From a virus (taxonomy: Duplodnaviria; Heunggongvirae; Uroviricota; Caudoviricetes), in IMG/VR virus record IMGVR_UViG_2548876954_000009: DNA of 43,895 nucleotides. The stretch is one strand, 5' to 3'. The notes beneath the pieces were generated by a model. That model did not search any database and was not told the origin of the DNA. It saw only the letters and a list, made by a program, of their open reading frames with translations. Position 1 is the first letter of the stretch. Every line of letters starts with the position of its first letter. The position numbers and the translations under genes were made by a program. Shown here piece after piece: positions 2,027 to 37,854 of the stretch.

Positions 2027-4831
2027 TTATAACCCGGATAACTTCGCTTCAAGCTCCTCAACCCTTTTTGTCAGTTTCTGAATATGGTGAATGAGAGGAA
2101 CAACCAGACGATCATACATCACGCCTTCAGCAACCATCCCGTTCAGGGAAATATCTTCCGGGTCGTCGTCATCTACAGCCTCACGCCAGTGAACATATTG
2201 CGGTGCAATCTCTCCAACTTCTTCCGCAATAAGGCCATAATGCCCCCAGTCCTTTCTGTCCCTTTCACAAGTCGAGCGATACCATACAGGACGCAGTTTC
2301 AACAGTTCGTCCGCGTACCTGTTCTCTAAAGACTCGATATCCGTCTTGTATCGACGTGATGAAGTCGAACGAAATACCATGTTGTAACCAGCAATCGGAC
2401 TTACGAACATGTTAGGACTATCGGTTGTTGTCTGAACATCAAAGATCTGCAGACTGTAACAGCTTAACGTCTGGAATCCTGCATCCAAAGAACCAGACTC
2501 AAGTTTCGTTGACGTAACAAAGTTACGGGTCATCTGGTTTACTTCGGATATGCTGTAAGCGCCGATTTCAAGCGGTGTGGGCAGTTTCTTTGTGTTCAGT
2601 GCACGACGCCATCCGGGGGAATAAGCAGTACCGTTAAACACATAGATAAATTCCGCATTAGTGAGGGCGTCAGAGACACTTGTCGTCGTGGCTGTTGTTA
2701 TTCGAATGGTGTAATGCGTTGCACTGTGACTGAATACTTCTATCACAGCTCCTGCCAGTGGAATAATGCCGCACCCAGTTTCACTGTCTGGTATGGAGGC
2801 GCTGTCAGCGTATGCCCAGGCACAGCGTGCCACCCATGCTTTTGTATTAAATGCACCATTATTCTGCAATATCGTCACTAACTGAGCCGTCGTTATCGAT
2901 GCACCATTACTCCCTGTGCCTAACCAGCCGGTTGGAGATGCAGGGCAACCAATATTCGCCGGTGACAGCGAAATATTAGCCGTTCCGTCAAATGAGACCC
3001 CATTAATGGTGCATGCTGTTTGCAGTTTTGTGGCTGTAGCTGCATTACCATTCAATGAACCAGTTAACCCGCCTGTAACAGACAACGGACCTGAAACTGT
3101 TCCTCCGGTTGTTGGCAGTGCTCCAATATCTGACGGCGTCGGTTTCTGATGTGAACTATACATCGTATAAACAACACCATCGGTAACGCTGGAAGGCTTA
3201 CTCGCTGAATATGTTGGCGAGGTATAAACAGAAACTGACGCATTTGCGGTACAATCCCAATGGATATTTACACTCGTCGCATAATTGCCAGTCTCAACGT
3301 AAATATCATATGTATCGCCGGATGTGTTGTTCCAGGCGAAATTAGTTAATCCGACGGCTGTACGCTTCCACAAAGCCCCGGTAATCCCTTTGGGGTTTCC
3401 ATTGCCTGCTCGTAGAACCAGTTCTGAAATGCCTGCCTGCTGTGGGGAGCCGACGTTGTAACCAGCACCACCAATCAATGCGATGTAAACGATGGAACTC
3501 GCTTGTGGCATTGTAACCGTAGCCAGTTTGAACCATCCTGCCCCGCCAGAGAAAGACATCGTTACTGAATTTAAAGTACCAATATCTTTCGGCGTTAATG
3601 TGATATCCGCAGTCAGTGCTTTCCCGTTAACTTTTCGGTCAGATGGCACCCTGCTGTTCGCATTGTCATTTGCTGCTTTAACTGCCTTTGGCGTTGCGGC
3701 CAGCGATTCACTGGTGCTGTCGACAGCACTGCTAAGTTTCACAACACCTTTAGTGGTAAGGCTTGCGTCCTCCATCGCAACCGCACCGGCAATCTCTTCA
3801 GCACGATTGGCTGCAGCTTGTGCACGCGTTGCAGCGGATTCAGCAGCAGTTTTGCTCTGAGATGCAGCCGTCGCACTACCAGCTGCCTCTGTTGCCTTCG
3901 TGGATGCCGTCGTGGCACTGCCCTTCGCAGCTGACGCCTGCCTGATCGCCTCATCTTTTGAAGCGGACGCCGAGGTAGCTGATGCAGACGCAGAACTTGC
4001 AGATTCAGCAGCTGCCGACTTAGAGGAAGCGGCATTGTCTTCTGAAGTCTTTGCATTTGTTTCAGAGGTTTTTGCTGCCGATGCTGAATCTTTCGCGGCT
4101 GTAGCCTGACTCGTCGCCTCAGTCGCTTTTGCGGTAGCTGTTGTTGCCGATGACGACGCGCTTTCTGCTGATTTTCCGGCGGCGGTGGCACTGGCTGCGG
4201 CATTCGTTTCTGACATTTTTGCCGCACCGGCACTGGTGGCCGCCGCGCTTTTTGAGGACTCTGCAGCGGCAGCACTTTTTGATGCTTCAGTGGCCTTTGC
4301 TGATGCCGTTCCTGCGCTGGAAGACGCTGACTGAGCAGATGATGCAGCCTGTCCGGCTGACGTGCTGGCGGCACGTGCTGAGCCTGCAGCATCGGTTGCA
4401 TGAGTTGCCGCCTCGCTGGCTGATGCACTGGCATCGCTGGCTGATTTTTTCGCGGCTGCCGTATTCTGTGCAACCGCGGAGGCGTTACGCGCCACCTCTT
4501 CCACCATCAGTTCAAAACGGCGCAGTGCCTCCGGACGGGCATCATCCTCCGTCATTGCGCCGAGAAAATCATTCAGCGTACCCGGCTGAGAATCTTCATA
4601 CACGGTGATGGTCCCGGCATGTGACGGCGGGAATCCCTCCACCAACAGGATGACGCTGTACTGACCGTACTCAACGTCCATTGTGTAACGCCCGGCTTCA
4701 TCCGGGTTTTCTGAAGCCACCGTGTTCACCACCACCGTGGTGCTGTTGCGCCTGGCTTTCAGCTGAATGGTGCAGTTCTGTATTGGTTTTCCCGCACCAT
4801 CTTTCAGTACACCTGAAATCTTTACTGCCAT
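2027..4831 (-). CDS. stf: Side tail fibre protein (lambda Stf-like N-terminus, Ala/Ser/Thr-rich repeat stalk, C-terminal intramolecular chaperone/S74-like domain)
   Basis: N-terminus MAVKISGVLKDG... resembles lambda Stf; long A/S/T-rich repeats; C-terminal ...YKTDIESL...GLIAEEVGEIAPQYVHW... resembles auto-cleaving chaperone domains; ATG at 4831 with GGGGTGAG RBS (ORF track start at 4837 is GTG). Confidence 0.85.
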   Translation of the reverse strand: MAVKISGVLKDGAGKPIQNCTIQLKARRNSTTVVVNTVASENPDEAGRYTMDVEYGQYSVILLVEGFPPSHAGTITVYEDSQPGTLNDFLGAMTEDDARPEALRRFELMVEEVARNASAVAQNTAAAKKSASDASASASEAATHATDAAGSARAASTSAGQAASSAQSASSSAGTASAKATEASKSAAAAESSKSAAATSAGAAKMSETNAAASATAAGKSAESASSSATTATAKATEATSQATAAKDSASAAKTSETNAKTSEDNAASSKSAAAESASSASASATSASASKDEAIRQASAAKGSATTASTKATEAAGSATAASQSKTAAESAATRAQAAANRAEEIAGAVAMEDASLTTKGVVKLSSAVDSTSESLAATPKAVKAANDNANSRVPSDRKVNGKALTADITLTPKDIGTLNSVTMSFSGGAGWFKLATVTMPQASSIVYIALIGGAGYNVGSPQQAGISELVLRAGNGNPKGITGALWKRTAVGLTNFAWNNTSGDTYDIYVETGNYATSVNIHWDCTANASVSVYTSPTYSASKPSSVTDGVVYTMYSSHQKPTPSDIGALPTTGGTVSGPLSVTGGLTGSLNGNAATATKLQTACTINGVSFDGTANISLSPANIGCPASPTGWLGTGSNGASITTAQLVTILQNNGAFNTKAWVARCAWAYADSASIPDSETGCGIIPLAGAVIEVFSHSATHYTIRITTATTTSVSDALTNAEFIYVFNGTAYSPGWRRALNTKKLPTPLEIGAYSISEVNQMTRNFVTSTKLESGSLDAGFQTLSCYSLQIFDVQTTTDSPNMFVSPIAGYNMVFRSTSSRRYKTDIESLENRYADELLKLRPVWYRSTCERDRKDWGHYGLIAEEVGEIAPQYVHWREAVDDDDPEDISLNGMVAEGVMYDRLVVPLIHHIQKLTKRVEELEAKLSGL

Positions 4832-26834: not shown

Positions 26835-27115
26835 GATATTGTGGTGCTTTTTGTGGGAGTCATCCACTTACGCACTTTGTTTTTCTATACCAGCAGTTAG
26901 CTTCTGCTGTAAAACTATTCATGCAGCAAACCTGCACTTCACCACGATGGTTAGCATACTTTTCCTGATTAAGATCTTGCCAAATATGCTTGCCATTATT
27001 TCATGCATTGAACATCCTTACTTTTTATTAAAGATATCCAATATTCGCCACTCTGTCTGTATCTCCACTCAGGCATCAGCCTTCTTCGTTATCGTATACA
27101 GACGAGCTATGAATT

Positions 27116-27331
27116 TTAATCAGTAATAATGACATTTGCTGCTGCAGGACCTTTAGCACCACTCTCTATAGAGAAGATAACCTTTTGACCTTCAAATAAG
27201 GTTCGATAATTATCATTCTGAATTGCAGAAAAATGCACAAACACATCTTTACTACCATCAACAGGAGAAATAAAGCCAAAACCTTTATCAGCGTTAAACC
27301 ATTTTACTAAACCAGTCATTTTATTTGACAT
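27116..27331 (-). CDS. cspB: Cold shock protein, CspB/CspI-like
   Basis: [23 protein letters not shown]... with RNP motifs; 71 aa. Confidence 0.9.
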
Positions 27332-27631
27332 TCTACATTCCTTAACTTGAGCCTTTCGGCATAAATGATTTGTATAACAGAAACGACTTCGTACTTAATT
27401 GGAGAGACTCAAAGAAGGAATAAGTGAATAACACCTGAAATGAGAACTGCTTTAGTAAACTACTTCGTATATCGTCTGTTCTTCAAACCGACGCAATCAT
27501 TAACGCATAGTTGAACATATGAAGCAATGTTTATTTTAGACATCCAGCCATCTTCAACCCCATCAAAAAACTATAGCTTTCTTCAGGAAGGTGTGTATAG
27601 TGCGCCCAGTTATCAGTATTAAGGAATTTTT

Positions 27632-33685: not shown

Positions 33686-33918
33686 GCTGCACCTCCGAGA
33701 TGCTTCATGTTTTTTCCGGAGCAAAAGGCTATAAGCGGCATACTGATGCGGTAATTACGGCCCAGCGGTTCACAAATCACCTTCTGACATTCACGGTCAA
33801 CCAGGCTAACACGTAGAACATGCCCTGCAGGCGTGGTGTACCACTGCCCAACTGTAGGAATTGATGTTTTTTTACGCTTAAGCAAACGGCAAATATTGAG
33901 GATCAACGGATTAAGCAT
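33682..33918 (-). CDS. Small basic hypothetical protein, translationally coupled to replication gene
   Basis: 78 aa; GGAGGG RBS; stop overlaps downstream ATG (ATGA). Confidence 0.4.
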   Translation of the reverse strand: MLNPLILNICRLLKRKKTSIPTVGQWYTTPAGHVLRVSLVDRECQKVICEPLGRNYRISMPLIAFCSGKNMKHLGGAA

Positions 33919-34747
33919 GACGATGCCCTCCGCGGATATTCAGGAGACGGTGAATATGAAAATTAGCCTTATCCGCCAGACGAATACGTTCAGCTTGCAA
34001 GTTAAGAAGGGTTTCTACCAGAACCTGATGCGCCTGCGGATCCGAAAGAGTTACCTTGCGCAGAGCACGTAGTGCAGTCGTTACATAACTGAGTTTATGT
34101 AAGTCTTCATCATTCAGACGAGTGAGGGCTGGGACAGTAGCCATGATGGCAGCCTCCTTGATCGGTGAAATACTTCCACCACCGGAAACGCCAATTTCGC
34201 TGGTGGTGAACTGAACGGGGTTGGCGTAACCGGTGATCAAGGAAACCGGCGCATCTTTCGATGCCCCCGCCCAGCCCACCATAACTTTGATGTGAGCAAA
34301 TGCGGACGATAAAAAAGACGCTGGCGCGTCATATATCGCCTTGATCAATTCCAGGACGCCAATCCCGGCACCCGCTTTATAAGGTGCCTGAACAGTGTAA
34401 CGTCCCGGAATGGCAGAATCAATGTGCTGGTGGTCCTTCACACTCAACAAAATCACGCCTGAATTTCCACAAAGGACTAAAGCACTCATGCGGGTAGTCT
34501 TTGCGAAGATAGATAACGCGCTGTGTTTCTGGCTCCCAACGAATAACATGAACATAAAGTCCTCTTCCGTCACGAAACCAGCGGTTAAGTTCCTGCACAA
34601 CTCGCCCCCCACAGTCAGGTAAAGTTCTCTGTGGTTACTTACAGCCAGGTGATTTGGTAATCTGCATTCATGCCGTAACAACAGGTGTTCAGCGACGCTG
34701 ACCACCAGCTGTTGCGACAAACGGTTATTTGCCGTTAAACTGTTCAT
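33911..34747 (-). CDS. Hypothetical protein (278 aa) in early-right operon
   Basis: ATG overlaps upstream stop (ATGA); no recognisable motif, no Walker A. Confidence 0.4.
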   Translation of the reverse strand: MNSLTANNRLSQQLVVSVAEHLLLRHECRLPNHLAVSNHRELYLTVGGELCRNLTAGFVTEEDFMFMLFVGSQKHSALSIFAKTTRMSALVLCGNSGVILLSVKDHQHIDSAIPGRYTVQAPYKAGAGIGVLELIKAIYDAPASFLSSAFAHIKVMVGWAGASKDAPVSLITGYANPVQFTTSEIGVSGGGSISPIKEAAIMATVPALTRLNDEDLHKLSYVTTALRALRKVTLSDPQAHQVLVETLLNLQAERIRLADKANFHIHRLLNIRGGHRHA

Positions 34748-35307
34748 GCGTTAGTTTCTCCACAGACACAAAACGCCACGACGCCCGGAGCTGCACACTC
34801 GCGGGCGTCACTCTTTTCTGGAGCGCAAAAGATTTTGTAGACCAGTGCTGCATGCTCCTGGAGCTTCGAAATTGACAGATACAACTCATCATTAATTGCT
34901 GTCTGCTCGTGTGGCTCCACGACCCCATCTTCGATTGCCGAACGAATCTGCTTTGAGTAACTCCCGATCTGTTCGATGACTTCCAGCAGGCGCTGGTTTA
35001 TATCGGCATTCTCTACTTCCTCAATTTCAGGAAGCGATACAAACACCCCACCAGCAGACTGTGCGACAGCATCCGCAATGTAGTGAGTGCCAGCCGCGCG
35101 CTGTAAAATCATTGCCCATCCCAGCGGGAAAATCTGATCGCCATCTGCACGAAGGCGGTTGAATAAAGCGTTCTCTGTTACATCCAGCCACTCAGCAGCT
35201 TCAGCGTAACCCCCCGGCAACGCCGCGATAGTTTTCCTGACAGCTTTCACGTACCACTCAGGCTGTTTTTCTATTTTCCAGTGATGCTTACCCACGATTA
35301 GCCTCAT
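34744..35307 (-). CDS. Putative CII/YdaT-like regulatory protein
   Basis: 187 aa immediately downstream of cro-like gene, the position of cII/ydaT. Confidence 0.35.
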   Translation of the reverse strand: MRLIVGKHHWKIEKQPEWYVKAVRKTIAALPGGYAEAAEWLDVTENALFNRLRADGDQIFPLGWAMILQRAAGTHYIADAVAQSAGGVFVSLPEIEEVENADINQRLLEVIEQIGSYSKQIRSAIEDGVVEPHEQTAINDELYLSISKLQEHAALVYKIFCAPEKSDARECAAPGVVAFCVCGETNA

Positions 35308-35338: not shown

Positions 35339-35539
35339 CTAATCTTTCGGATAGATATCCGGTCTTAAGTCAGATTTCGTAATTGCACCTGACGTGCATT
35401 GCTCAAGTTTTTTAGCCAGCACAAAACTGGCTTTTTTATAGCCATTGAAAACCAGCCGTAAGTAGCCAGGTGTTGAGCCAACTTTTCCGGCCAACTCGCC
35501 CTGCTGTTCTTTGGTTAAAGAGTCCCAATACGCTTTCAT
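35339..35539 (-). CDS. cro: Cro/YdaS-like HTH regulator
   Basis: 66 aa from ATG 35539 with GGAGG RBS; ...GSTPGYLRLVFNGYKKASFVLAKKLEQCTSGAITKSDLRPDIYP HTH; divergent from cI. Confidence 0.75.
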   Translation of the reverse strand: MKAYWDSLTKEQQGELAGKVGSTPGYLRLVFNGYKKASFVLAKKLEQCTSGAITKSDLRPDIYPKD

Positions 35540-35544
35540 ACAAC

Positions 35545-35623
35545 ATGTACCTCCGGTATACATATTACATGATTGAAATGAACCTTCAAGATACTTGTAC
35601 CTTAACGGTACAAGGGTTTTAAT
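35545..35623. promoter_or_regulatory. OR region: two palindromic operators plus candidate PR (minus) and PRM (plus)
   Basis: Operators ATGTACCtccGGTATACAT (35545..35563) and CTTGTACCttaacGGTACAAG (35594..35614); PR -35 TTGAAG/-10 TAATAT on minus; PRM -35 TTGTAC/-10 TTTAAT with near-leaderless cI start. Confidence 0.5.
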
Positions 35624-35629
35624 TTCGTT

Positions 35630-36304
35630 ATGAAAACAATCCATGACATCCGGCGGTCTAACGCCAGAAAACTGAGAGATGGTGTTGGCGGGAATTCTTC
35701 CTTTGCCACTATGATTGATCGCGAGCCAACCCAGACCAGCAGGTTTATGGGAGATGGTGCTACTAAAAATATCGGTGACAGCATGGCACGACACATCGAA
35801 AAATGTTTCGACCTGCCTGTCGGATGGCTCGATCAAGAACACCAGACAACGAACATCACAAAAAAACCTGATGTTTCAATCACTAATAAACAAATCACAT
35901 TAGTCCCTGTCATATCATGGGTACAGGCCGGAGCATGGAAAGAAGTTGGATATTCTGAGGTTGATTTGAGCACAGCAGAAACGTATCCCTGCCCTGTACC
36001 CTGTGGGGAAATGACTTATATCTTGCGGGTGATAGGTGATTCAATGATTGATGAGTACCGCCCGGGAGACATGATTTTTGTCGATCCTGAAGTACCTGCC
36101 TGCCACGGTGACGACGTTATTGCATTGATGCACGATACAGGTGAAACCACCTTCAAAAGGTTGATAGAAGATGGGACACAGCGTTATCTCAAAGCGTTAA
36201 ACCCAAACTGGCCTGAGCCTTACATTAAGATCAACGGTAATTGCTCTATAATTGGAACTGTGATTTTCTCAGGAAAACCAAGAAGATACAAAATCAAAGC
36301 CTAA
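35630..36304 (+). CDS. cI: CI-type repressor (N-terminal HTH, C-terminal S24 LexA-like peptidase)
   Basis: 224 aa; C-terminal ...VIGDSMIDEYRPGDMIFVDPE... S24 signature with catalytic Ser and downstream Lys (FKRL); divergent from cro. Confidence 0.9.
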   Translation: MKTIHDIRRSNARKLRDGVGGNSSFATMIDREPTQTSRFMGDGATKNIGDSMARHIEKCFDLPVGWLDQEHQTTNITKKPDVSITNKQITLVPVISWVQAGAWKEVGYSEVDLSTAETYPCPVPCGEMTYILRVIGDSMIDEYRPGDMIFVDPEVPACHGDDVIALMHDTGETTFKRLIEDGTQRYLKALNPNWPEPYIKINGNCSIIGTVIFSGKPRRYKIKA

Positions 36305-36316
36305 TCAATGTTTATG

Positions 36317-36340
36317 AACCTGCTTCGGCAGGTTTTTTTA
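36317..36340 (+). terminator. Rho-independent terminator after cI
   Basis: Stem AACCTGC/GCAGGTT, loop TTCG, followed by T7. Confidence 0.7.
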
Positions 36341-36343
36341 TAC

Positions 36344-36380
36344 TTGACAATGTACCCATGAGATACATAATGTACCCAAG
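36344..36380 (+). promoter_or_regulatory. Putative PL promoter with OL operators
   Basis: TTGACA (36344..36349), 16-nt spacer, CATAAT; overlapped by ATGTACCCATGAGATACAT and a second ATGTACCCA copy sharing the OR half-site. Confidence 0.5.
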
Positions 36381-36456
36381 AGAAACAACAAACAGGCAGG
36401 ACGCCCACGAAGTAGCCGCCAGGGGCATATGAAGTCCTGGATGATTCGTTAGTAAC

Positions 36457-36480
36457 AAAAAAAGCGTCGTACAGGACGCT
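36457..36480 (-). terminator. Terminator after the exported-protein moron
   Basis: Stem AGCGTC/GACGCT, loop GTACAG, T-tract on minus strand. Confidence 0.5.
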
Positions 36481-36504
36481 TCGCTCTTTAACAATCTGGA
36501 TGAC

Positions 36505-37020
36505 TTATCGGTCAGATTTAAACTGGGGTTCTGGCAAAACTGGTGGTGTTGAATCTTCAAATCGTAACCAGTGTTCCCAAATATCATGTGTTCGTAATTT
36601 CTGTAGACTAATTTGACGCGATGCAATTGCGGAATTAGTGGTTACTCCACCAGAAGCATCGCTCTCTACTGACGTTGAGGCTTTTTCTACTAATTCTGAC
36701 CAAGCTTCACTTTCTGCGTCAAAAGCTTCTGTTAAGTCCCGCAGACGCTGTGGCTCATTTTTATGGTCTTCCTTCAAACGATTCAAAGCGGCAGTTGAAT
36801 ACTTATTCCTGACCCATTCGATCTGAGTTAGCTGAATCCGCAGACAATTATCTATATCAATGGTTGTGTTCTGAGGCATGTCAGAACAAGAAATATAAAA
36901 GGTCACAACTCCACCGTTCAAACTACTGCCCGGTTCGATTAAAACATTAGAGGAATTTGACGTAGTCGGCAATATTAATGCTAACGACAAAACCACATGT
37001 TTAACAGAAATCGCACCCAT
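36505..37020 (-). CDS. Hypothetical exported protein (N-terminal signal peptide); moron antisense to PL
   Basis: MGAISVKHVVLSLALILPTT... signal-like N-terminus; own terminator; convergent with cI. Confidence 0.5.
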   Translation of the reverse strand: MGAISVKHVVLSLALILPTTSNSSNVLIEPGSSLNGGVVTFYISCSDMPQNTTIDIDNCLRIQLTQIEWVRNKYSTAALNRLKEDHKNEPQRLRDLTEAFDAESEAWSELVEKASTSVESDASGGVTTNSAIASRQISLQKLRTHDIWEHWLRFEDSTPPVLPEPQFKSDR

Positions 37021-37354
37021 TTAAATTGCCCTCTAAAGAACAAGGTCATCCAGATTAACCGAAACCTGGTTATTGGGGAATAACCAAATCCACCTCGCCT
37101 GATGTGGCTAAAAGCAGGCACATAACAGCTAAGTATTTTCAACCAGAGAGAATCCTTAGCGTTGTGGTGAATGCGCAGGCTGATGCGCGAAAGACATTGC
37201 AGCTATTGCGGAAAAGAGCTGTTCGGCGGAGCAATTAAATGCCCGTGAGAGTCTGAAATAACCGCAAGCCGGAGATCAGCATCGGTCACCACAACAGCCA
37301 CTGCTTTGGCGGTACCAGTTTGTACACTTGCTTCCGGCTGGTACCGCTCTTTTT

Positions 37355-37443
37355 ACAAAACAGAGAAGAACATCATCGGACGACGGGCTCATAACCCAAT
37401 CCATCCGGGCGGCGGCCACCACAGGTGTTCTTCTCTGTTTTGT
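37355..37443. repeat. Perfect 18-bp inverted repeat separated by 53 bp
   Basis: ACAAAACAGAGAAGAACA (37355..37372) and TGTTCTTCTCTGTTTTGT (37426..37443). Confidence 0.7.
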
Positions 37444-37491
37444 GGAGAAACTAATAGGCCTTGCAGGGTCGATATGATGAGGAGCAGCAAA

Positions 37492-37854
37492 ATGGCTAGC
37501 GAACGCAGTACTGATGTACAGGCATTTATCGGGGAGCTGGACGGCGGCGTATTTGAAACCAAAATCGGCGCAGTTCTCAGTGAAGTCGCTTCCGGTGTGA
37601 TGAACACGAAAACCAAAGGTAAGGTCTCGCTCAACCTGGAAATTGAACCATTTGATGAGAACCGTGTGAAAATCAAACACAAACTCTCATATGTTCGCCC
37701 AACTAACCGCGGGAAAATTTCCGAAGAAGACACTACCGAAACGCCGATGTATGTCAATCGCGGTGGTCGCCTGACTATTCTGCAGGAAGACCAGGGACAA
37801 TTACTGACTCTTGCCGGTGAACCTGACGGAAAACTCCGCGCAGCAGGTCGTTAA
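37492..37854 (+). CDS. YfdP-like protein (CPS-53-type early gene)
   Basis: 120 aa from ATG 37492 with GAGGAG RBS; first gene of yfdP/Q/R/S-like block. Confidence 0.5.
   Translation: MASERSTDVQAFIGELDGGVFETKIGAVLSEVASGVMNTKTKGKVSLNLEIEPFDENRVKIKHKLSYVRPTNRGKISEEDTTETPMYVNRGGRLTILQEDQGQLLTLAGEPDGKLRAAGR

Follow-up and report, generated by a model that had tools for sequence, protein, structure and literature searches.

The Escherichia coli thrS operator is a hairpin in the 5' untranslated region (5' UTR) that mimics the anticodon arm of tRNA-Thr upstream of the ribosome-binding site. The three G-C pairs of the initiator tRNA are a determinant for P-site and IF3 selection. Among phages, RNase III cleaves within the N leader of lambda, and pseudo-ToxI of phage PhiTE counters ToxN. 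Phage tRNAs counter anticodon nucleases such as PARIS (PMC11464382), and the VapC toxins of Shigella, Salmonella, Haemophilus and Leptospira cut tRNA-fMet in its anticodon stem-loop in a sequence- and structure-specific manner (PMC8522696, PMC4705866). The putL RNA of phage HK022 begins at the promoter (PMC9378689). The LLS, ST64B and phiNP-type phages were described by Casjens and colleagues, 2025, as being without an N homologue, with a put-like mechanism offered as a guess (PMC12315714); the early control of N-less phages is acknowledged as not understood. Here we describe an RNA element in the early-left leader of a lambdoid virus of the Caudoviricetes (IMG/VR record IMGVR_UViG_2548876954_000009), centred on a perfect inverted repeat at positions 37355–37443. 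The whole stretch of DNA analysed, 43,895 nucleotides, is referred to as the window, and positions are numbered along it. As far as the structural part alone is concerned, we consider it very likely that the inverted repeat represents helix P1 of a Y-shaped plus-strand RNA of ~106 nt, in which P1 closes a three-way junction. Within this RNA, the sequence CGGGCUCAUAACCC (37384–37397, plus strand) is identical at 14 of 14 nt to the anticodon stem-loop of the E. coli initiator tRNA-fMet.

A repeat search of the window identified two arms of 18 nt each, 37355–37372 (ACAAAACAGAGAAGAACA) and 37426–37443 (TGTTCTTCTCTGTTTTGT), with 100% complementarity and a spacer of 53 nt. These are the arms and the spacer reported in a preliminary description of this locus, which had also judged such a stem improbable by chance; in agreement with this, only 6.5e-5 perfect 18-bp inverted repeats with a spacer of up to 100 nt are expected per 43,895 nt. 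RNA folding showed that P1 grows from 18 to 20 bp through the pairs U37373.G37425 and C37374-G37424, and it is extendable to 25 bp using U.G and U-A pairs with the upstream U-run. When the folding of the leader RNA was checked, the plus strand of 37340–37460 folded at -47 kcal/mol (z = -4.97), and none of 200 shuffled sequences folded as well. The conserved domain and its parts are as follows.

37346–37451, plus strand: the whole conserved RNA domain, termed E (U-run, P1, P2, P3 and GGAGAAAC; ~106 nt), a covariance-model match.
37355–37374, plus strand: 5' strand of P1, consisting of the left arm (37355–37372) and two further pairs.
37376–37382, plus strand: 5' strand of helix P2 (UCGGACG; seven layers including one C.A), pairing with 37402–37408.
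37382–37402, plus strand: near-invariant 21-nt module GACGGGCUCAUAACCCAAUCC, with a closing G-C pair, a 2x4 internal loop (AC/AAUC), a GGG/CCC stem and a 7-nt loop (CUCAUAA).
37402–37408, plus strand: 3' strand of P2 (CAUCCGG), pairing with 37376–37382.
37408–37423, plus strand: P3, a variable hairpin region that is weak in this window and whose closing pairs covary.
37424–37443, plus strand: 3' strand of P1, consisting of two further pairs and the right arm (37426–37443).
37444–37451, plus strand: conserved GGAGAAAC directly 3' of P1, kept in the early-left subfamily even without the upstream U-run.
37457–37470, plus strand: small hairpin F (GGCCU-UGCA-GGGUC, covarying stem), ahead of the yfdP Shine-Dalgarno sequence.

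The structure comprising P1 (20 bp), P2 and P3 was tested on an alignment of 44 distinct variants. In the true structure 95.4% of the cells were paired, compared with 41–50% when the partners were slid; both sides had changed at 10 pairs (e.g., G-C to C-G in 17 sequences and C-G to A-U in 13), and the observed covariation score was reached by 0 of 500 shuffles. For P1, 95.5% of the cells were paired across these variants, with both-side changes at 6 of its 20 pairs, and the helix was nearly perfect throughout all 59 early-type variants. Perfect pairing of the arms is private to this window: the best match among 5426 complete E. coli genomes was 98.1% identical and none reached at least 99%, in the common variant, position 16 of the arm forms a G.U pair, and a central C.C or A.C mismatch is found in many relatives. 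P2 shows compensatory changes (CCGGA/UCCGG to CCGGG/CCCGG and CCAGG/CCUGG) and in other subfamilies has a wholly different sequence that still forms seven complementary layers. This length is shared by the early, late, tRNA-adjacent and PA-1 subfamilies, and its constancy points to a geometric constraint. P3 varies in length from 15 to ~45 nt in the relatives.

The alignment contains 76 G.U cells versus 15 A.C cells, and the covariance model R1 scored domain E at 113.6 bits (E = 3e-28) on the plus strand versus 40.3 bits on the minus strand; this match was the sole significant one within the window. Because of the G.U excess over A.C and this difference between the strands, the functional form is the plus-strand RNA, the strand transcribed from PL. 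The covariation, the G.U strand bias, the covariance-model scores and the position downstream of PL together support the earlier suggestion of a structured RNA on the PL transcript. The alternative of a regulator site with a long spacer, raised in the same description, is not supported, the arms being the part that covaries and the spacer the part that is conserved.

The stretch copied from tRNA-fMet corresponds to what we take to be C28–C41 in conventional tRNA numbering, and the tRNA-fMet reference agreed at 100% with tRNA-Met genes annotated in each of the 5426 genomes. The elongator tRNA-Met (metU) has the loop CUCAUAA in common only, its stem being UCA/UGA and not GGG/CCC. The three G-C pairs thus separate initiator from elongator tRNA-Met, and the copy is therefore initiator-specific. 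Natural variants retain CUCAU, as in ST64B (CUCAUUA) and Eeyore (CUCAUUC), and the PA-1 variant has one stem pair changed to G.U. The helix order P1-P2-P3-P1' is that of a tRNA minus the D arm. The 21-nt module has one match in the window, where none is expected, and the homologues retrieved by blastn carry 0–2 changes in these 21 core nt versus 4–5 per 18-nt arm. Judged by its sequence, the element is a member of a phage RNA family, widespread and unannotated, that mimics the initiator anticodon arm. The general idea of the preliminary description, a structured leader RNA, is thus upheld; its specific proposals (a processing site, a put-like element, an operator or an insertion) did not find support, and the initiator-tRNA copy in the spacer had gone unnoticed.

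The segment 37343–37454 was found by blastn at ~95% identity in mEp460, cdtI, SfV, SfII, SfIV and Stx2a/Stx2c phages, and at ~80% identity or less in ST64B, 118970_sal3, F1055, Klebsiella Kp4866-6, Citrobacter phiNP, LLS, Eeyore and Pantoea PA-1. The order in these relatives is constant: cI, optional inserts, the element and the first early-left gene. We identified the element in 2479 of the 5426 complete E. coli genomes (~46%), with a median of 1 and a maximum of 5 copies per genome; these copies are always prophage-borne, lie upstream of yfdP-type genes and are annotated either as nothing or as “hypothetical protein”. A pattern scan of one genome per species found the element in 15 genera of Enterobacterales. 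The CPS-53 prophage of E. coli K-12 is without it. The earlier proposal that the repeats are the ends of a miniature insertion is refuted by the single copy in the window, the median of one per genome and the constant syntenic position, and no target-site duplications were found; copy number, synteny and covarying arms together rule out a miniature inverted-repeat transposable element (MITE).

In other phages, the same core is present in helices of unrelated sequence between Q and the holin and lysozyme genes, in association with three Pfam Q families. This late-type element is nearly absent among the isolated phages of the phage collection. P1 in the other subfamilies is only 6–12 bp long or interrupted, and the core is still kept. 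Across the family the first downstream genes fall into 13 clusters, including the yfdP/sb37 family, 331-aa and 318-aa families, holins and an HD-domain family, which we read as YfdR-like; the distance from core to start codon ranges from ~30 to ~350 nt. Viral contigs from bog metagenomes and an Acidobacteriaceae metagenome-assembled genome (MAG) contain a plain 19-bp hairpin that lacks P3 and lies, as read, ~15 nt before an 83-aa open reading frame (ORF), with 38 nt from the core end to the ORF. Core matches in Prosthecobacter, Pedobacter, Synergistaceae, Rhizobiaceae and a gammaproteobacterial MAG were rejected; they have no helices, and their number fits chance, as ~17 are expected for 18 specified bases in 596 Gb.

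Several loci show features of their own. In L163 (865–935), L171 (2731–2801) and L187, the core begins 19 nt after a tRNA-Thr(UGU) gene, with ~6 nt to the start of P1 as read. This variant has a 6-bp P1, a 7-bp P2, a 7-bp P3 and a 3' GCCA, so that P1 and P3 add up to ~13 bp and resemble an acceptor/T minihelix; a 6-bp P1 followed by GCCA was seen in this variant only. Its sequence suggests that tRNA-like processing, or even use as a tRNA, is possible. In L171 a terminator is located between the element and the holin gene. In L159, L160, L164 and similar late-type loci, inspection by eye indicated that an upstream GCCGCCAGA...UCUGGCGGC hairpin offers a second pairing partner for the P1 5' strand GGCGGCC, and a conformational switch between two folds is possible in the late-leader subfamily.

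At gathering thresholds, the Rfam 15 models matching the window were cspA, C4 and isrK only, all away from the element, and a search of 36950–37560 at E <=10 returned only chance miRNA and ribozyme matches of <=18.5 bits. A canonical tRNA gene was rejected: the element has no D arm and no canonical T loop, and a CCA end is lacking in most members. Among known prophage small RNAs (sRNAs), svsR is located elsewhere, at the 3' end of cI, and the Pas sRNAs reside in late or structural regions; the Pas preprint does not mention yfdP. None of the titles and abstracts of papers naming both yfdP and yfdQ points to the element. It is thus apparently undescribed in the literature searched, unannotated and absent from Rfam 15.

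The element lies in the leader between the immunity region and yfdP; the features of this part of the window are as follows.

34744–35307, minus strand: CII/CP76 gene (Pfam).
35339–35539, minus strand: cro-like gene (Pfam).
35630–36304, plus strand: gene for a cI-like repressor with a Peptidase_S24 domain (Pfam).
36344–36388, plus strand: PL with two operator copies (36350–36368 and 36370–36388), the promoter expected to transcribe the element.
37308–37354, plus strand: terminator-like hairpin D (GGCGGUACCAG...CUGGUACCGC[U], -21 kcal/mol; G+C-rich stem of 10–11 bp) followed by UCUUUUU, abutting P1.
37479–37494, plus strand: yfdP Shine-Dalgarno sequence GAGGAG and ATG (37492), the first early-left gene.

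The Pfam domains confirm a lambdoid immunity region. Downstream of the cI terminator, TTGACA-16-CATAAT (36344–36371, plus strand) matches 11 of 12 consensus positions, and the operator motif TGTACC...ATACA is also present between cro and cI (35545–35564 and 35594–35614); this promoter with its operators is PL. The element lies ~1 kb downstream of PL, or ~430 nt if the intervening gene insert is removed, and ends 48 nt ahead of the yfdP ATG, which agrees with the location given previously, downstream of PL and upstream of a yfdP-like gene. The next genes are yfdQ (DUF2303) and a yfdR-like gene. The stem of hairpin D has an entirely different sequence in ST64B, Kp4866-6 and phiNP, yet it is still complementary. 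A run of at least five T immediately precedes P1 in 57 of 59 unique early-type variants, and a terminator-like hairpin or U-run is located 0–70 nt upstream in nearly all loci of the family. Downstream of P1, the loop of hairpin F keeps (U/G)GCAG, also where the downstream gene differs. The GGAGAAAC-UAAC linker and hairpin F (37444–37470, plus strand) are retained even where the first gene has been replaced by an unrelated one. A kissing interaction between the loops of P3 and hairpin F was considered by eye and rejected as inconsistent between variants.

The remainder of the leader is a chain of conserved RNA domains. An RNA segment of ~65 nt (36388–36455, plus strand; AACAGGCAGGACGCCCACGAAGUAGCCGCC-hairpin-GAUGAUUCG) starts just after PL and is conserved right behind many different heteroimmune PL promoters and operators (58 variants), with a covarying hairpin CCNGG-GGCAUAUGAAGN-CCNGG. 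Its position is that of HK022 putL, with which it shares short words only (CGAA and GGAUGA). On these grounds the segment is a better candidate for a put-like antiterminator in these N-less phages than the element. In this window a hairpin comes next and then a perfect boxA, CGCUCUUUAACAA (consensus CGCTCTTTAACAA), the two together spanning 36461–36494 (plus strand); the boxA (36482–36494) lies ~110 nt downstream of the PL start and is the only consensus match in the window. The hairpin and (A/C/T)GCTCTTTAAC recur in many related leaders, and the order of hairpin then boxA resembles rrn leaders, hinting at antitermination that needs host factors only. Further downstream, a minus-strand ORF of 171 aa (36505–37020) encodes a signal-peptide-like N terminus with a weak match to LprI and is bracketed by a perfect 12-bp inverted repeat, AATCTGGATGAC / GTCATCCAGATT (36493–36504 and 37045–37056); this gene looks like a cassette inserted in the PL leader. 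In module C (37161–37295, plus strand), three hairpins are enclosed by a 10-bp stem, GUUGUGGUGA/UCACCACAAC, with a cloverleaf-like outline (-47.7 kcal/mol); the module is conserved in ST64B, phiNP and Kp4866-6. The overlapping region 37154–37296 matches P1-like plasmids at ~96%, where tRNA-Asn and tRNA-Thr genes lie 75 nt upstream of the matching, unannotated stretch, and 37090–37175 matches the ymfH region of e14.

Outside this leader, the PR-side operon contains Rfam matches to C4 antisense RNA (34199–34286, minus strand, 82 bits) and isrK (34311–34387, minus strand, 64 bits), both inside a 278-aa ORF (33911–34747, minus strand) carrying a Phage_ASH domain; these suggest a P1/Gifsy-type module for antirepressor control. 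The cspA thermoregulator family is matched over its full length at 27074–27492 (minus strand, 157 bits), indicating a phage-borne cold-shock-protein gene with its 5' UTR.

The element could also be mistaken for coding sequence. Two reading frames are free of stops across it in most variants, and a TTG-initiated ORF (37306–37854, plus strand) crosses hairpin D and the element and enters yfdP in frame. Some records, including 118970_sal3, carry a long yfdP/sb37 annotation that covers the element, and the ORF at 2480–3013 of locus L005 is of the same kind. In 16 of 59 variants the length of the element differs by a number of nt not divisible by 3, and comparison of the variants for a coding signature found no synonymous-type variation in the core. 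The frame-breaking lengths, the invariant core and the compensatory changes in the arms rule out a coding reading, and the ORF annotations over the element are probably mis-annotated non-coding RNA.

Based on these features, we tentatively propose, at somewhat less than an even chance, that the element derives from a tRNA, imitates the initiator anticodon arm, is made only in lytic transcription and competes with tRNA-fMet. It would be transcribed only in lytic development, by read-through from PL past hairpin D, because it is located directly behind this terminator-like hairpin; the relatives in other phages are placed behind the terminator of a Q-dependent late leader. In the early-left subfamily, the 20–25-bp P1 would be a likely entry site for RNase III, which would excise a Y-shaped piece; through its exposed arm this piece would be a competitor of tRNA-fMet for a factor reading that arm. 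The preferred partner would be a VapC-type nuclease that attacks the anticodon of the initiator tRNA, with the RNA as a decoy or inhibitor that shields translation initiation while the phage grows; the second choice would be the 30S P site with IF3. An RNA acting on its own, and not as one gene's operator, is what the sequences argue for, because the downstream genes and distances are variable and a terminator follows the element in L171. The fuller proposal, a dedicated phage tRNA-derived RNA of Enterobacterales and possibly beyond that would act in trans, either as a decoy for, or inhibitor of, VapC-type toxins or by docking in the 30S P site and reprogramming initiation, we regard as doubtful.

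Several observations weigh against the proposed initiator-tRNA mimic. It retains only the three G-C pairs, an internal loop replacing the two upper stem pairs of the tRNA. ARAGORN called 0 tRNA genes in the window, including the element, and the Rfam tRNA model did not match the element even at E <=10. Adjacency to a tRNA gene is rare, at 3 of 177 loci, and was rejected as a general rule. Most of the other loci were fetched with a pattern containing the core, so that the invariance seen there is partly by construction. PL transcription through the antisense of the 171-aa gene is assumed; excision, stability and partner binding are inferred, the partner purely from resemblance. Titrating an enzyme with a stoichiometric decoy is inefficient, except where the decoy cannot be cleaved. 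Finally, only the early-left subfamily has the long perfect P1, GGAGAAAC and hairpin F; these features hint at an additional function in cis that the proposal does not cover.

As an alternative, the element could be a translational operator acting in cis on the first gene, similar to thrS, at which the 30S P site with IF3, or methionyl-tRNA synthetase through the CAU, docks and thereby recruits or blocks ribosomes. The element is always located in the 5' UTR shortly ahead of the first gene of a long operon, the early subfamily has the Shine-Dalgarno-like GGAGAAAC and a conserved hairpin beside the real Shine-Dalgarno sequence, and the three G-C pairs are the known P-site and IF3 determinant. 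We nevertheless consider an operator unlikely, given that core-to-start distances of ~30 to ~350 nt and 13 clusters of first genes with unrelated start contexts are served by one core, that the terminator of L171 parts the element from the holin gene, that no AUG is found at Shine-Dalgarno spacing downstream of GGAG, and that GGAGAAAC and hairpin F are missing in the late-type and other subfamilies. A role confined to RNase III processing or mRNA stability, with the tRNA-fMet likeness as a relic or coincidence, is distinctly unlikely. P1 does have the dimensions of an RNase III substrate, a near-perfect duplex of ~20 bp or about two turns (25 bp with the U-run pairs), and these are kept in the 59 early-type variants; its location between the leader terminator and the first gene parallels the lambda N leader site. 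A plausible substrate is thus what stands of the processing site proposed earlier, and the claim itself is not established: it leaves the near-invariant apical 21 nt unexplained while P1 covaries freely, it does not account for a core kept on the 6–12-bp or interrupted P1 of other subfamilies, which would be poor substrates, and a 14-nt in-register match to one stem-loop has a chance of ~1e-5 or less (arithmetic from 4^-14).

The preliminary description had also raised a put-like antitermination element, which would bind the transcribing RNA polymerase, render it resistant to terminators further along the early-left operon and substitute for the missing N. The put RNAs of HK022 suppress terminators in cis by acting on RNA polymerase at the beta' zinc-binding domain. 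In favour of this reading, no N homologue was found among the nine neighbouring ORFs (Pfam), a put-like mechanism has been guessed for LLS (PMC12315714), and the element is a conserved structured RNA heading long operons. The comparison with the HK022 putL and putR sequences (NC_002166) covered a length of ~70 nt, two adjacent stem-loops with a shared AACGGC loop, and the motifs GUCGGG, GGAUGA and CAAUG. The element has neither sequence nor architecture in common with them, being a three-way junction and not two tandem stem-loops, and blastn of putL against 36301–37520 returned only chance matches of 7–11 nt. Each phage has a single copy, and no second copy on the PR side was found in the window with a pattern allowing 3 mismatches or with the covariance model with filters off. 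The element also lies downstream of a leader terminator, ~430–1000 nt from PL, whereas putL is at the promoter (PMC9378689), a position that the RNA at 36388–36455 fits better; and in the Q-controlled late leaders of other phages an RNA antiterminator would be redundant. A put-like role, which was not established by these comparisons, is therefore improbable. Still less credible is a nut-like site for an unrecognised N analogue, with the anticodon-like hairpin or the P3 loop as boxB and CGCUCUUUUUACAA over the U-run as boxA. The U-run region CGCTCTTTTTACAA is close to the boxA consensus, and CUAACC, the hexaloop that in phage 21 boxB forms a GNRA-like (UMAC) motif (PMC12550061), is present in P3 of some relatives. 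This boxA-like reading is however unconserved, the relatives having GCCCUUUUU or GACCUUUUU, and the perfect boxA is elsewhere, at 36482–36494; P3 of the window is without CUAACC, so that a boxB of the phage 21 type is not conserved, and the spacing is wrong. A lambda-type nut site was rejected on the same points, together with the single element per phage and a first gene that varies and is not an Arg-rich, N-like one. A feature of the DNA itself (a long-spacer operator, a cruciform or MITE ends) or a small ORF is scarcely plausible. The repeat of the window is perfect at the DNA level, and the stop-free frames and long yfdP/sb37 annotations described above could be taken to favour an ORF; set against these are the covarying arms, the G.U to A.C ratio, the conserved spacer, the one copy that each prophage carries, in a constant syntenic position and lacking target-site duplications, the length differences and the core without synonymous-type variation.

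The element is widespread yet unannotated, being present also in Stx-converting, Shigella serotype-converting and Salmonella ST64B phages, and spurious ORFs called across it by genome annotators can now be corrected. That a viral leader carries the initiator anticodon arm in exact copy suggests an interplay with initiator-tRNA nucleases or the ribosomal P site. If the proposed mimicry is true, the element would represent a new class of viral tRNA mimic, in its toxin-decoy version an RNA anti-defence factor, and would give a new role to the long “empty” leaders of N-less lambdoid phages.

Compared with the systems introduced at the outset, the element resembles the thrS operator in copying the anticodon stem-loop of one specific tRNA in a 5' UTR, and differs in that it copies the initiator, is carried by phages and stands ahead of many unrelated genes, so that its logic is not that of a synthetase gene regulating itself. 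With the phage tRNA genes and tRNA-like RNAs of lambdoid late leaders it shares a niche, behind the late terminator and before the lysis genes, or in the early-left leader, but its P1 is up to 20–25 bp long, it has no D arm and it is recognised neither by ARAGORN nor by the Rfam tRNA model. Like HK022 put, it is a structured RNA that a lambdoid phage without N encodes in cis, in its early leader; unlike put, it is single-copy, has another fold, is promoter-distant and lies behind a terminator (PMC9378689). The RNase III hairpin of the lambda N leader likewise places a long duplex behind the leader signals and ahead of the first early-left gene, but it is without a conserved apical tRNA-like module, whereas the core of the element also occurs on a short P1. 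With the RNA mimics that counter toxins, finally, the element would share the concept of a phage RNA imitating the partner or substrate of a host ribonuclease, which for the element is a proposal made by analogy.

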